This document shows positions 43,735 through 50,974 of a DNA stretch of 64,000 nucleotides, one piece after another. Source of the DNA: Candidatus Nanohaloarchaea archaeon (GTDB lineage Archaea; Nanohalarchaeota; Nanosalinia; Nanosalinales; Nanosalinaceae); the NCBI GenBank assembly GCA_042218325.1, contig JBDGRE010000001.1, positions 68,356 through 132,355 of the forward strand. The letters are read 5' to 3'. How positions within the stretch are numbered: the stretch's first letter is position 1; every line of letters starts with the position of its first letter. The position numbers and the translations under genes were made by a program. The notes beneath the pieces were generated by a model that ran no database searches, was not told the DNA's origin, and saw only the letters and a list, made by a program, of their open reading frames with translations.

Positions 43735-45471
43735 TTACAGCTCTCCGAGTCCCGCGCCCTGCATGAACCCCTGTATCTTCTGCTCCAGCTCCTCAACGGG
43801 CACTCTTACCTGCTCCGTCGAGTCCCTGTCCCTCAGCGTGACGGTGCCATCCTCTAGGGTCTCGTGGTCCACGGTGACGCAGAGCGGGGTCCCGATCTCG
43901 TCCTGTCTCCGGTACCTCCGGCCTATCGCGCCCGAGTCATCGTAGTCGACCGAGAAGCCTGCGGCCCTCAGCGACTCCGCTACTTCTTCCGCTTTCTCCC
44001 CCATACCGTCCTTATCCATAAGCGGGAAAACCGCGACCTCTACCGGTGCGACATCCGGTTCGAGCCTGAGAACTGTTCGTTGCTCGCCGTCGACCTCGTC
44101 TTCTTCGAGGCTGTGGTCGAGGACAGTGTAGAACAGCCGCCCGATACCGAACGACGGCTCGACCACTGCGGCCATGATGTTCTCGCCGTTGATGGTTTTC
44201 TCCACCTCCTCTCTTTCTATCCAGTCTGTGTCGACATCGAAGACCTCGCCGTTCAAGTCTACCTCCAGCGTGTCCTGGTCCAGCAGGCTGGGATGGTCCT
44301 TGACGCTTTCTTCCACGGCCTCCGCGACATCGCCTGCGTCGGAGCCGAACTCCGGCCCGAGTTCGCCCATGTCGACCGAGACATCGACTACCTCTTCTTC
44401 CCGCGGCTCGTCGTACTCGCGGAAGACGGTGAAGTCCTCGCCCGAGTGCTCTTGGTGGTTCTTGAGGTCGTAGCAGCCGCGGTACGCGAAACCGGCGAGT
44501 TCCACCCATGTTCCCGCGGTGTAGGCCTCGGCGTCCCAGCAGTCGCTGGCGTAGTGCGAGAGCTCGTCCTCCTGGTGCTGCCGGAACCTGAACTTGTCCA
44601 TGTTGACGCCGACCTTCTCGTACCACCGCTTCGAGATGCCGACGTAGTAGGCGACCCAGTCGCTCGCGATTATATCCTTCTCGACGGCCTCGCCGACGGT
44701 CGTGACTATCTCTTCGCCGCCTCCTCTGTCCTGCTCGCTGCGCGGGTAGAGCGTGACCTTTACGTCCTCGACTTTCTCGAGTCCGGGTTCGTCTCTCTCC
44801 GGGTCGATGAAATGCTCGAGCTCGGCCTGTGTGAACTCCCGGACCCTGACCAGTGATTTACGCGGCGATATCTCGTTCCTGTACGCCTTGCCTACCTGGG
44901 TTATGCCGAACGGCAGCTGGTTGCGGGCGTACTCCTTCAGCTGCGGGAACTCCACGAAGATGCCCTGCGCCGTCTCCGGCCGGAGGTAGCCGGGCGAGGA
45001 GTCACCGGGGCCGATGTTGGTCGAGAACATCAGGTTGAAGTCGTCGACTTCTTCTCCCGCCAGTGCTTCACCGCAGTCCGGGCACTGTATGTCCTCGTCG
45101 GAGATGATTTCCATTATCCTCTCCGTGGAGAATGCCTCCGCCTCCTCCACTTCTGTATTATCCTCTACGAGGTGATCGGCGCGGTGCGACTTCCCGCATC
45201 CCGGGCATTCGATTATCATGTCGTCGAACGTCTCGAGGTGGCCGGATGCCTCGAAAACCGCCTCGGGCATCACTGTAGGCGCATCGATTTCCCGGTGGCC
45301 TTCCCTGTACGTGAACCTCTCGCGCCACTCGTCCTCGATATTACTCTTCATCGGGGCTCCGCGCGGGCCGTACGTGTAGAACCCGGCGGTACCGCCATAT
45401 ATCTCGTTCGAGGGCAAAAAGAATCCGCGCCTCTTCGCGAGTTCCGTGACTTCTCCCGTGTCGTCTGTCAT
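43735..45471 (-). CDS. glyS: Glycyl-tRNA synthetase (alpha2 type)
   Basis: LRPETAQG, RNEISPR, REFTQAE, EPSFGIGR, IGRRYRRQDEIG. Confidence 0.96.
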   Translation of the reverse strand: MTDDTGEVTELAKRRGFFLPSNEIYGGTAGFYTYGPRGAPMKSNIEDEWRERFTYREGHREIDAPTVMPEAVFEASGHLETFDDMIIECPGCGKSHRADHLVEDNTEVEEAEAFSTERIMEIISDEDIQCPDCGEALAGEEVDDFNLMFSTNIGPGDSSPGYLRPETAQGIFVEFPQLKEYARNQLPFGITQVGKAYRNEISPRKSLVRVREFTQAELEHFIDPERDEPGLEKVEDVKVTLYPRSEQDRGGGEEIVTTVGEAVEKDIIASDWVAYYVGISKRWYEKVGVNMDKFRFRQHQEDELSHYASDCWDAEAYTAGTWVELAGFAYRGCYDLKNHQEHSGEDFTVFREYDEPREEEVVDVSVDMGELGPEFGSDAGDVAEAVEESVKDHPSLLDQDTLEVDLNGEVFDVDTDWIEREEVEKTINGENIMAAVVEPSFGIGRLFYTVLDHSLEEDEVDGEQRTVLRLEPDVAPVEVAVFPLMDKDGMGEKAEEVAESLRAAGFSVDYDDSGAIGRRYRRQDEIGTPLCVTVDHETLEDGTVTLRDRDSTEQVRVPVEELEQKIQGFMQGAGLGEL

Positions 45472-45585
45472 GGGAGACAGTTCGGAGAGTATCTTTTAGA
45501 AAGAACGGTTTTGAGGCTCGAGAAAGTTTCAGTAACGGCTGTGGGAGGCTCCAAAATGTCCACCTTTGGTTGGTTCACAGCACAT
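45468..45585 (-). promoter_or_regulatory. glyS leader: uORF 45529-45585 with putative +1 shift site TTT-GGA; +1 frame ends on glyS ATGA
   Basis: MCCEPTKGGHFG...; AAA GGT GGA CAT TTT GGA at 45567-45550; +1 frame open 27 codons to TGA 45470-45468. Confidence 0.75.
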
Positions 45586-45640
45586 GCCTGTAACCGGGCC
45601 TCGAAGTTTTTTATGAGTTCGTGGGCTCGGCGGGATAATC

Positions 45641-46201
45641 ATGGCGGAAGACGTAGTCCTCGTGGGCGGCGACGGTGTCGACGAGAACTTCCCCGCGGTC
45701 CTGGAACCGCGTCGGGCTCTCGAGGAAGAAGGCTACAGCGTGGATGTGATCGAGCTCTACAGGGGTTTCGAGCAGGCAGTGGAGGAAGACGGCTCGGTAC
45801 CGGAGATCGAGAGCCGTATAGAGGCCGGGACCCACCTCGTGGGTTACTGTGCAGGAGGCGTTCTCGCGTACCAGTACATAGATCACCCGGACGTGCTCTC
45901 CTTCACAGGCTACGATGTTCCGTCGGGTCTAAGGGTCGAAGACAGGGAGCTCCGGGTCGACGAGCCCGTTGACAGGGAGGACATCTTCTTGATATACGCC
46001 GGCGAGATAGGGGGGCGGCTCGAGGGCAGTTTCGCCGGGGCCGAGGTGAAAGATACCGGTCACGGATTCGACGGCAGGGAGCAGGAACTGGCGAGGGCCG
46101 TGCTGCACGGTCTTGAACACCATTCCGGTATAGGTCTTGAAGATCTGTCGGAAAGGGCGCTTGAACAGGGAGTATCTATCTTCCGGGGGCTCCGGAGATA
46201 A
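45641..46201 (+). CDS. Alpha/beta-hydrolase-like protein
   Basis: LVGYCAGG nucleophile elbow and GHGF, dienelactone-hydrolase-like. Confidence 0.55.
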   Translation: MAEDVVLVGGDGVDENFPAVLEPRRALEEEGYSVDVIELYRGFEQAVEEDGSVPEIESRIEAGTHLVGYCAGGVLAYQYIDHPDVLSFTGYDVPSGLRVEDRELRVDEPVDREDIFLIYAGEIGGRLEGSFAGAEVKDTGHGFDGREQELARAVLHGLEHHSGIGLEDLSERALEQGVSIFRGLRR

Positions 46202-48278: not shown

Positions 48279-48459
48279 ATGCGGCAGGGTGGACGTTTTT
48301 GGACCGCGCGCATCTCCCGATGACGTAGACAGCCGCTTTACGGTCCAGGGTGGATGTTCGGGCTCTTCTCGCACGCACGGCAGTTTATCTTTGACTGGTT
48401 CATACCTGCAGATCTGCGCTGTGCTGGAGGCTTCTTGGCGCAGAACATGGTATAGGTAA
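48279..48459 (+). promoter_or_regulatory. Extra Trp-type frameshift cassette (uORF 48279-48323; +1 frame to 48459)
   Basis: ATG CGG CAG GGT GGA CGT TTT TGG (MRQGGRFW). Confidence 0.5.
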
Positions 48460-48576: not shown

Positions 48577-48961
48577 ATGGCACACACCACTACGGACGAA
48601 GAAAATGCAGAAGCCCGCAAGGGTGGACGTTTTTGGAAAACCTAGCATAGAAGTGGTCGCAGACCTGGCGGACCCGACCCCAGTTTACGTTTCCGGCCAG
48701 CAGGACACCGGTTTCTACCGCGAGATAACCTGTGATGCCGACCTCGTGATCCTGAGGAACAAAGAGGAATTCTCGCAGGAACCCGGAGATATCCTCGACG
48801 GGGATTACAGGGAGCTGCTACAGAGGTCAGACCAGGATATCTACGTTCACGAGGACGCGCCCAGAGACTTCCCTGGGATGAACCCGTACGTGGTCGAAGG
48901 GCTGGCCGCCAGCGGCGTGGAAGAACTGGCGGAAGCCTACTTGGAGCAGGGCCATGAATAA
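48577..48961 (+). CDS. Hypothetical protein probably made by +1 frameshift at TTT-TGG (48631-48636); leader of trpS
   Basis: 0 frame MAHTTTDEENAEARKGGRFWKT* (48577-48645); +1 frame is the acidic ORF 48605-48961. Confidence 0.65.
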
Positions 48962-48986
48962 AATACCTGCCCGTGGAAGTGATTGA
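48954..48986 (+). CDS. 10-aa relay ORF into trpS
   Basis: ATGAATAA overlap with upstream stop; MNKIPARGSD; TGA-C-ATG into trpS. Confidence 0.45.
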   Translation: MNKIPARGSD

Positions 48987-48987
48987 C

Positions 48988-50097
48988 ATGCCAGACATAG
49001 ACCCGTGGGGAGACGTCGAGGTGGGAGACTACCGCGAAAAGATGGAGAAGTTCGGCATCGAACCAGTCGGCGAGATAGAGGACAGGATGCCGGACCACAG
49101 GTACGTCCGCCGCGGGATAATATTCGGTCACCGCGGCATGGACGAGTTCCTCGACGCCCGGGAAAACGGCGATAACGTGGCGATGATGACGGGTATCATG
49201 CCGTCCGGCGTCTTCCACATGGGCCACAAGTGCGTGGTCGACCAGGTCACGATGTACCAGGAGATGGGGGCCGACATCACCCTCGCGGCCGCGGATATAG
49301 AGGCTTACAACACCAGGGAGATGCCCATAGGGAAGGCCCGCGAACTTGTCATCGAGGAGTATCTGGCCAACTACGTGGCGCTCGGCCTCGACCTCGAGCA
49401 GACTGATTTCTACTTCCAGAGCCAGGCCGGCAACGACCACCACGCCCGGGCCAAGATGTTCGCTCGATACCTCACACAGAACGAGGTCGAATCCACGTAC
49501 GGCAGCGCCGCACCGGGGAAGATTACCTCCGCGCTGACGCAGTACGCCGACATACTGAGGCCCCAGTTCCCGGAGAACGGGGGCCCGAAGCCCACAGTCG
49601 TTCCTGTAGGCGTGGACCAGGATCCTCATATACGGCTGACAAGGGAGGTCGCACGCAAGTACCGCGGCCAAGGCTTTGTCAAGCCCGCCTCAACTTACAA
49701 CAAGTTCATGCGCGGGCTCCAGGGCGGCAAGATGTCGTCGAGCAAGCCCAAGAGCTACATCGCACTGACCGACGGTGTAGAAGATGCGAAGCAGAAGGTC
49801 GACGAGGCCAAGACCGGCGGCAGGGACACACTGGAGGAGCAGCGGGAGAAAGGTGCCCGGGTCAAGGAGGACATGGTCTTCGAGCTGCTTGCCTTCCACC
49901 TGATCGAGGACGACTCCGAGCTTGAACGCATCCGGGAAGAGTACAGCTCGGGAGAGATGCTCTCCGGCGAGCTGAAGCAGATAGCGAAGGAAAGACTGGA
50001 GGAGTTCCTGAGGGAGCACCAGCAGAAGCGTGAAGAGGCCCGTGCCGAGGTGGAGCAGTTCGTCCGCGAGAACGTTCCCGAGGGAGAACTGGTTTAA
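48988..50097 (+). CDS. trpS: Tryptophanyl-tRNA synthetase
   Basis: IDPWG, PSGVFHMGH (HIGH), PVGVDQDPH, KMSSS, AKTGGR. Confidence 0.95.
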   Translation: MPDIDPWGDVEVGDYREKMEKFGIEPVGEIEDRMPDHRYVRRGIIFGHRGMDEFLDARENGDNVAMMTGIMPSGVFHMGHKCVVDQVTMYQEMGADITLAAADIEAYNTREMPIGKARELVIEEYLANYVALGLDLEQTDFYFQSQAGNDHHARAKMFARYLTQNEVESTYGSAAPGKITSALTQYADILRPQFPENGGPKPTVVPVGVDQDPHIRLTREVARKYRGQGFVKPASTYNKFMRGLQGGKMSSSKPKSYIALTDGVEDAKQKVDEAKTGGRDTLEEQREKGARVKEDMVFELLAFHLIEDDSELERIREEYSSGEMLSGELKQIAKERLEEFLREHQQKREEARAEVEQFVRENVPEGELV

Positions 50098-50847: not shown

Positions 50848-50974
50848 ATGACCGCAGGAACACGTTTACCAACTGGTCCCACCGACTACAAGGGTGGATG
50901 TTTTTTCCGGGGATAGACCCTGCCACGGCTGCGCTGAAATATTAAAGGTTAATCGGCGAGGTGTATCGCTGTGA
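50848..50974 (+). promoter_or_regulatory. pheS leader: uORF 50848-50916 with putative +1 shift site TTT-TTC; +1 frame ends on pheS GTGA
   Basis: MTAGTRLPTGPTDYKGGCFFRG*; AAG GGT GGA TGT TTT TTC at 50890-50907; +1 frame open 22 codons to TGA 50972-50974. Confidence 0.78.

Follow-up and report, generated by a model that had tools for sequence, protein, structure and literature searches.

The window analysed here, a stretch of 64,000 nucleotides (nt) from the genome of a Candidatus Nanohaloarchaea archaeon (contig JBDGRE010000001.1), carries on its minus strand glyS, the gene for a dimeric-type glycine--tRNA ligase (GlyRS), and immediately upstream of it a 118-base stretch which, judged from its conservation among relatives, is almost certainly an amino-acid-specific translational sensor. 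The sensor would act, with a probability that we put at roughly 0.7, by a +1 ribosomal frameshift coupled to the translation of glyS. The stretch belongs to a leader family with the consensus ATG..AAR-GGT-GRN-YRY-TTT-X, in which the codon X codes for the amino acid of the downstream gene, and comparison across this family establishes a leader open reading frame (ORF), a cognate codon within it, an open +1 frame and the ending of that frame at the gene start.

In the window the frame-0 leader ORF contains TTT followed by the glycine codon GGA, and the +1 frame terminates at TGA 45470-45468, overlapping the glyS ATG 45471-45469 within ATGA (45471-45468), so that leader and glyS display the stop-start overlap of a coupled gene pair (Table 1). 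An earlier note on this DNA had described these frame-0 and +1-frame products and the TGA-ATG overlap, all of which hold on the minus strand. The product of glyS scores 668.3 bits against TIGR00389 (cut-off 243.3), and the host genome, which comprises 1.07 Mb on 35 contigs at a G+C content of 55% and encodes an acidic proteome, has genes for tRNA-Phe(GAA) and tRNA-Gly(UCC, GCC). The arrangement in the window alone could be chance, its +1 frame, a 23-codon stretch, staying open in 37% of the dinucleotide shuffles; it is the comparison across relatives that settles this.

GlyRS was present in all of the 41 related genomes, and the motif GGTGRAYRYTTTGG was found in 37 of the 50 family genomes, essentially once each; in every locus holding both (35/35), the motif precedes glyS by 81-174 nt and shares its strand. 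The scan of metagenomes by the GlyRS N-terminus gave 80 loci, mostly on high-GC contigs, from 68 of which the motif is missing (two of these end just upstream of glyS), and the genome loci together with 9 new metagenome loci make up 45 distinct glyS leaders. All 45 have an in-frame ATG at 6, 12 or 21 nt before the GGT, the spacings being multiples of three throughout, a glycine codon after the TTT (GGA in 44 and GGG in one), and a frame-0 stop soon after the TTT-Gly. From the TTT to 10 nt before the glyS ATG, the +1 frame is free of stops in 44 of the 45 leaders, the +2 frame in 7 and frame 0 in none, the mean chance of an open +1 frame being 0.22 in dinucleotide shuffles. The +1 stop ends at -10 to +17 of the glyS ATG in 45/45, and the +1 frame reaches this ATG in 30 of 35 loci. 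The proposal of the earlier note, a leaderless mini-ORF with a predicted +1 shift at TTT-GGA when Gly-tRNA is short and coupling to glyS through the ATGA overlap, is thus supported in every part that lends itself to comparison, including the conservation of frame among orthologous leaders that the note had named as a check.

It is the openness of the +1 frame, not its product, that is kept by selection, since the peptide changes frame between the loci: the block CTATAAAAATTTCC, conserved as a nucleotide sequence, gives AIKIS at certain loci and DYKNF elsewhere, owing to 1-nt indels that compensate for one another. The orthologous frame-0 peptide is M(xx)KGG[R/C/Y/H]FG followed by a variable tail. 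A conserved micro-protein was considered and dropped, the residue before Phe varying among R, C, Y and H by transitions, the tail being unconserved and the +1 peptide shifting frame. Likewise, the glycine codons upstream of the TTT were dropped as glycine sensors, KGG being found in the leaders of every amino acid.

The same cassette stands before other synthetase genes. The general motif has about 250 matches in the phylum set, of which roughly 150 were examined, and a single de-duplicated pass over the collected loci gave 150 distinct leader-like elements; an identified synthetase follows 111 of them (identified by NCBIfam for some and by blastx to those references for the remainder), with X cognate in 111/111, namely Gly 45, Thr 21, Ser 16, Tyr 11, Val 7, Trp 6, Cys 3 and Phe 2. 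In 106 of these 111 leaders, no more than 30 nt separate the +1 stop from the inferred start of the synthetase gene. Where an attenuator leader would be enriched in cognate codons, each of these leaders has one such codon at a fixed place. A rule so free of exceptions means that ribosomes decode the codon after UUU in frame 0 and that its identity counts, and a +1 frame open to the gene start means that translation in +1 matters too; a +1 shift at UUU-X would link the two. In favour of such a shift, some leaders have a real protein directly in the +1 frame: a TrpD-like protein after the Trp leader L179 of another family (153 bits, below the cut-off), an aminotransferase after the Trp leader L161, and a 344-amino-acid ORF, followed by dapF, after a Lys leader. 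In the host genome TTT is the rare Phe codon (4.6 per 1000 as opposed to 33.4 for TTC) and TTG is likewise rare, so the fixed TTTG suggests selection on the bases themselves.

The rule was reproduced in each of the sets examined. The host genome was screened for short ORFs whose stop falls at a gene start and which show a -1-frame ATG behind an A/T box, which gave nine genes, including glyS and an 881-amino-acid gene with the leader M..KGGRF-V, the latter being valS (NF009687, 1074 bits). In five complete family genomes all 21 pattern matches are leaders, with none for the reversed-pattern control; 11 of them abut a synthetase, with the +1 stop at -4 to +9 nt from its start, and are cognate without exception, a Tyr leader before tyrS included. 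Three further genomes gave 11/11 cognate pairs, and two other families of the phylum contributed Cys before cysS three times, Thr before thrS four times and Ser before serS. The general motif occurs in 58 of the 70 phylum-set genomes, including 48 of the 49 other family genomes, and matches of the reversed pattern are rare. The 18-base pattern ATGAARGGTGGAYGTTTT was met in 109 stretches of the whole genome collection, where records labelled Nanohaloarchaea, Nanohalobium, Nanosalina or Asbonarchaeaceae carry the motif; among 80 of these stretches, 37 were grouped as nanohaloarchaeal and 36 of the 37 have a synthetase downstream, always the cognate one, and the other 43 come from scattered bacteria and two thaumarchaea, about 70 chance matches being expected by arithmetic.

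The course of events that we infer from these features is as follows. The transcript would start at or a few bases before ATG 45585, and ribosomes would read M-C-C-E-P-T-K-G-G-H-F, which brings tRNA-Phe onto the weakly pairing UUU in the P site with GGA next to be decoded. With plentiful Gly-tRNA the ribosome would keep its frame and stop six codons on; with Gly-tRNA scarce, as at low GlyRS activity, the A site would stand empty and the ribosome would slip one base forward, presumably aided by the GGUGG stretch just upstream, which resembles a Shine-Dalgarno (SD) sequence, as in bacterial release factor 2 (RF2). The shifted ribosome would then read GAG CCU and onward in the +1 frame, terminate at the TGA of the ATGA and restart on glyS by termination-reinitiation, the trans-frame product joining ...GGHF to EPPTAVTETFSSLK; a ribosome kept behind the polymerase might also shield transcription into glyS. 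Such a device would have the right sign for feedback, scarce charged tRNA giving more shift and more synthetase. The 3' end of the 16S ribosomal RNA (contig C34) reads GGATCACCTCC, to which GGUG(G/A) is complementary, and the UUU follows after 3 nt if counted from GGUGGA and after 5 nt if counted from the GGUG core. In RF2 the internal SD stands 3 nt from the shift codon. Transcriptional slippage on the T-run was dropped as an alternative route, 3-4 T being considered too short.

As to the tRNA that would slip, the Pfam family Wyosine_form (PF08608) was found in none of the 50 family genomes and in 5 of the 70 phylum-set genomes; four of these five lack the leader motif, and in the remaining one it is matched only once and weakly. 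This absence fits, weakly and with about two clades concerned, a shift-prone tRNA-Phe; the loss of wyosine on tRNA-Phe may have made the leader system possible.

The promoter geometry of the host genome was surveyed on 736 long acidic ORFs, with positions taken relative to the first ATG. Runs of six A/T peak at -31 to -28, the genome-wide A/T peak extending over -31 to -24, and a window with at least 7 of 8 A/T was found at -34 to -21 in 282 of the ORFs against 71 at a control distance; GGTG or GAGG at -15 to -9 is found in a minority, the GGTG peak being at -12 to -9 (66/736). This indicates that leaderless starts dominate the genome, with SD sequences also in use. The probable leaderless ATG at 45585 with an upstream A/T box, as the earlier note had it, agrees with this geometry, its box lying at -29 to -22, that is, at about the 24-30 nt expected of a TATA-like box before a leaderless mini-ORF, and an A/T 8-mer begins at -43 to -29 from the leader ATG in 42 of the 45 glyS leaders.

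Regarding RNA structure, a hairpin that begins at the GGA codon covaries among 21 sequences (86% paired, as against 29-41% with the partner slid), with double changes in 5 of its 9 pairs and a score reached by none of 500 shuffles. RNAalifold on 21 of the 45 full leaders gave this single hairpin and predicted neither a competing fold nor a terminator with a U-run, and cmscan of window positions 45300-45800 against Rfam 15, the T-box model included, gave 0 matches at E up to 10. The lack of Rfam matches, the single hairpin, and the in-frame ATG and frame rules, which favour translation, led us to drop the reading as a structured non-coding RNA or riboswitch. Also dropped was a candidate long-range pairing GUUUUGGA:UUCAAAAC spotted by eye, which RNAalifold does not predict and whose two sides barely vary.

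Several observations weigh against a frameshift-coupled sensor. Slippage on UUU-G puts tRNA-Phe on UUG with a wobble mismatch, in agreement with the imperfect re-pairing of TTT to TTG pointed out in the earlier note; re-pairing is perfect only for X codons starting with U (Ser, Trp, Tyr, Phe, Cys), and the mismatch arises for Gly, Val, Thr, Ile and Lys. All the search patterns fixed GGTG and TTT, so the invariance of those bases is not informative, and related genomes are not independent samples. The strict motif is missing from 13 of the 50 family genomes, one of which (G001) has a variant, in at least five genomes glyS has no leader nearby, and 39 of the 150 elements, a few of them maybe chance, are without an identified synthetase downstream. 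For a stimulator, a hairpin starting at the GGA has an unusual spacing, and the window copy has no such hairpin (-4.7 kcal/mol). A GTG, inside GGTG, stands in the +1 frame of every leader, and GUG initiation is therefore possible. Finally, an SD-like stretch precedes glyS itself in 33 of the 45 orthologous leaders and an A/T 8-mer lies at -31/-30 of the glyS ATG in 31 of the 45, which together make expression of glyS without the leader probable.

This last point bears on two claims of the earlier note. The absence of an SD sequence from glyS stands for the window genome, with no GGTG, GAGG or AGGT at -18 to -5 of its start, but fails as a general feature in view of the 33/45. An internal promoter at TCTAAAAG, which the note had named as a refutation of the leader, is probably real, yet it would coexist with the leader and not replace it: an A/T 8-mer begins within -34 to -29 of the glyS ATG in 36 of the 45 leaders and in none of the other 9, and the internal A/T block is kept at the nucleotide level irrespective of the reading frame, so that a second, leaderless glyS promoter is probably present there. 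With no SD in the window copy, coupling would be the sole route to GlyRS from the leader transcript, and the internal promoter could give a basal level.

The GTG common to all leaders suggests a reading with no frameshift at all, in which the +1 ORF would start at the GUG inside GGUGGA and be coupled to glyS through the ATGA, the frame-0 ORF only modulating it, for instance by occupying the GUG. Some loci do hold in the +1 frame a real protein that would then begin V-D-V-F-G, and the +1 frames of L166 and of the second Trp leader in the window each have an upstream ATG of their own. We nevertheless hold GUG initiation to be unlikely, because the cognate codon (111/111) has a meaning in frame 0 only, and because a ribosome stalled at X would sit over the GUG, 8 nt upstream, so that starvation would depress synthetase output, which is the wrong direction. 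Moreover, the GUG has no preceding SD, the AUG is at the predicted 5' end in a genome dominated by leaderless starts, and the GTG is never replaced by ATG, though the patterns demanded GGTG.

The covarying hairpin right after TTTGGA, along with a leader ORF whose cognate codon recalls bacterial leader peptides, would also suit attenuation by stalling only, where the ribosome paused at the cognate codon melts the hairpin and alters folding, transcript fate or termination, the open +1 frame being a by-product. This appears distinctly improbable: the 21 leaders folded offer neither an alternative pairing nor a U-run terminator, the window copy keeps all other features without the hairpin, and the open +1 frame (44/45 against 7 and 0) with its end at the gene start would be left unexplained. 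Lower still do we rate the chances that the window leader is a decaying relic, with glyS expressed here only as a leaderless messenger RNA from the internal box (45491-45502). That box is at the leaderless distance, the window copy has lost the hairpin and the SD and shows an unusual His codon before the TTT and a longer N-terminus, and the motif of G001, from the same genus, has diverged to GGTGGCTACTTTGG; against this, the ATG, GGTGGA, TTT-GGA, open +1 frame and ATGA overlap are all intact, seven other leaders are intact in the host genome, and without an SD only coupling would allow glyS to be translated from the longer transcript. The idea that short ORFs fell into this arrangement by chance between two divergent genes, to which the 37% of shuffles and the 177 host-genome genes with some short ORF ending at their start might lend colour, is already refuted by the 45 conserved leaders, the 111 cognate pairs and the spread of the motif (58/70 genomes, with rare reversed-pattern matches), and has practically no standing.

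A +1 frameshift coupled to glyS, as preferred here, would unite features of several known systems. T-boxes bind uncharged tRNA directly in an untranslated leader and have a single specifier codon; the nanohaloarchaeal leaders are similar in that one cassette with a single specifier is reused before many synthetase and amino-acid genes, and differ in that the specifier is read by the ribosome and Rfam gives no match. In attenuators, such as trpL, hisL and pheM of pheST, a short leader ORF has codons of the amino acid of the pathway and the speed of the ribosome sets the expression; the present leaders share the match between leader codon and downstream synthetase or pathway, with a single cognate codon in place of a run, no terminator/antiterminator pair found, and a second frame conserved up to the gene start. 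To our knowledge, archaea have no T-boxes and no proven leader-peptide attenuators, and how they match synthetases to charging is largely unknown.

Among frameshift systems, the shift site of RF2 (prfB) is CUU_U, replaced in a minority of species by UUU_U, and is combined with an internal SD, in the account of it given in PMC5009743, and Ty1 shifts +1 through a slow A-site AGG and competition from the +1-frame tRNA (PMC5009743). The leaders resemble RF2 in the internal SD, the slippery codon and a slow decoding that would report the shortage of the very activity to be restored (as RF2 is portrayed in PMC5009743), and the SD-like stretch encodes Gly-Gly in both. They stand outside the RF2 class, however: the codon in the A site is a gene-dependent sense codon (GGA here) and not a stop, charged tRNA would be sensed instead of the release factor, and the restored enzyme is mostly encoded not by the shifted frame but by a separate ORF reached through stop-start overlap. 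The sensing would moreover take place in a mini-ORF at the 5' end of the transcript, and in an archaeal host. With Ty1, ABP140 and the starvation frameshifts of E. coli they would share a weakly paired peptidyl-tRNA, a slowly filled A site and competition by the tRNA of the +1 codon, as outlined in PMC5009743; shifts of the Ty1/ABP140 type have a fixed rare codon and yield a fusion protein, and none of them is described there as a family of amino-acid-specific sensors before cognate synthetase genes. Termination-reinitiation at overlaps is reported as established in haloarchaea (PMC6728339), and coupling of this kind at archaeal ATGA/TGATG overlaps in PMC6728339 and PMC10666635. The leaders have the same overlap or near contact of upstream stop and downstream start, with the difference that ribosomes would get into the upstream frame only by shifting, so that their coupling would be conditional.

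A 2021 review names a single -1 frameshift as proven for a cellular gene of an archaeon, with +1 only predicted, in one haloarchaeal virus (PMC8211752). The parts of the recoding reviews that deal with such shifts describe no such system, and full-text literature searches, with most subscription journals outside their scope, returned no description of such leaders. The leader family is accordingly rated by us as a categorically new regulatory class, which would work like RF2 and Ty1, serve the purpose of T-boxes and attenuators, and be a member of none. It is probable that Nanohaloarchaeota possess in it a programmable, ribosome-read analogue of the T-box, a 5'-terminal mini-ORF with an SD-like stretch, UUU and a specifier codon that would shift +1 when the matching tRNA is uncharged and so bring ribosomes to the cognate synthetase or amino-acid gene, or translate it directly; the versions before synthetase genes cover at least eight amino acids, and those before metabolic genes Ile, Lys and Trp. 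If true, it would be the first programmed +1 frameshift from archaeal cells, as well as an amino-acid sensor of a new class, the exceptionless cognate rule in 111 cases offering a concrete, testable mechanism in which the "hunger" of a sense codon is read as a +1 frameshift. Starvation frameshifting, long a laboratory curiosity, would become a natural regulatory device, annotators would gain a rule for finding hidden regulatory ORFs, and synthetic biology a compact, re-targetable sensor of tRNA charging.

Table 1. Features of the glyS leader locus and of other leaders in the window and the host genome (positions in the window)
Feature	Position	Strand	Remarks
glyS, dimeric-type glycine--tRNA ligase, 578 amino acids	43735-45471	-	TIGR00389; Pfam HGTP_anticodon and tRNA-synt_2b
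Frame-0 leader ORF MCCEPTKGGHFGASHSRY, then stop	45585-45529	-	ATG 45585-45583
SD-like stretch AAAGGTGGA	45567-45559	-	within the leader ORF
TTT, proposed shift codon	45555-45553	-	P site
GGA, glycine specifier ("hungry") codon	45552-45550	-	A site
+1-frame ORF EPPTAVTETFSSLKTVLSKRYSPNCLP, then stop (EPPT...NCLP)	45551-45468	-	ends on the ATGA overlap with glyS
A/T box ATAAAAAA, likely TATA box of the leader transcript	45614-45607	-	-29 to -22 from ATG 45585
Internal A/T box TTTCTAAAAGAT, possible second, leaderless glyS promoter	45502-45491	-	-31 to -20 of the glyS ATG
Trp leader type 1, MRQGGRFW...	48279-48323	+	X = TGG 48300-48302
Trp leader type 2, M..ARKGGRFWKT, then stop	48577-48645	+	X = TGG 48634-48636
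Phe leader, M..YKGGCFFRG, then stop	50848-50974	+	X = TTC 50905-50907
MKGGRF-S (host genome)			X = Ser; serS
MKGGYF-T (host genome)			X = Thr; thrS
..KGGRF-V (host genome)			X = Val; valS
..KGGCF-F (host genome)			X = Phe; pheS-pheT
..GGRF-W, two leaders (host genome)			X = Trp; trpS
..KGERF-I (host genome, contig C14)			X = Ile; downstream genes without a family match
..GERF-K (host genome)			X = Lys; 344-amino-acid ORF in the +1 frame, then dapF

Apart from the glyS leader, the window holds two Trp leaders in tandem before trpS on the plus strand and a Phe leader before pheS. The +1 frame of the second Trp leader is a 118-amino-acid ORF (48605-48961), 11 nt after which trpS begins (48973-50097; 244.7 bits against TIGR00233, cut-off 176.75). 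In the Phe leader the +1 stop TGA (50972-50974) overlaps the pheS GTG at 50971; pheS scores 439.9 bits against NF003210 (cut-off 350) and pheT 529 bits against TIGR00471. Family searches gave no match for the 118-amino-acid ORF, the 344-amino-acid ORF and the genes after the Ile leader (C14), and no leader was found for tyrS and cysS of the host genome.

The elements without an identified synthetase include a PALP enzyme after an Ile leader, and an aminotransferase, an M20 peptidase, a GNAT-like and a TrpD-like protein after Trp leaders. On contig C32 (1-3972, L156) the Lys leader runs in the +1 frame into the acidic 344-amino-acid ORF, which overlaps dapF (TIGR00652, 265 bits), and its place before dapF indicates that the cassette is used on genes of amino-acid metabolism as well. 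In the Ile leaders and some Val leaders (L157, L170, L177, L192, and contig C14 near 16082) a second, KGGRVLQ-like or GGCVL motif follows a few codons on, at which branched-chain amino acids may be sensed once more.

The A/T box at 45607-45614 is at the leaderless distance both from the leader ATG (45585, minus strand) and from the ATG of a divergent ORF (45641, plus strand), which shares a 169-bp spacer with glyS and for which a family search gave no match. CGAA-like stretches flank the box on either side (45607-45641), and the shared box may be a bidirectional promoter.

Two contigs (L255, L280) of a metagenome-assembled genome labelled Colwellia polaris carry the 18-base motif and look mis-binned; one contig so labelled has a Ser codon and serS, whose inferred start is 7 nt before the end of the +1 stop. 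At one glyS locus (L024), in genome G008, a leader is represented by its 5' part (GTG..ATGGCAATCAAGGG), which stands about 40 nt before the glyS match and enters the glyS coding sequence out of the ATG frame; a deletion, an error of assembly in a G-run and a variant with direct fusion are possible causes. Among leaderless loci, a palindrome GTAATACGAnGTATTAC, followed by a T-run and TTTTTAAT, lies upstream of glyS in L006, L011, L018 and L024 and may be the end of a neighbouring gene or a binding site. The N-terminal 120 amino acids of the window GlyRS are 63-74% identical to GlyRS on high-GC metagenome contigs with an upstream overlapping gene, and only 37-44% identical to those of other families of its own order, a pattern that looks like lateral transfer between haloarchaea-like organisms and the host family.

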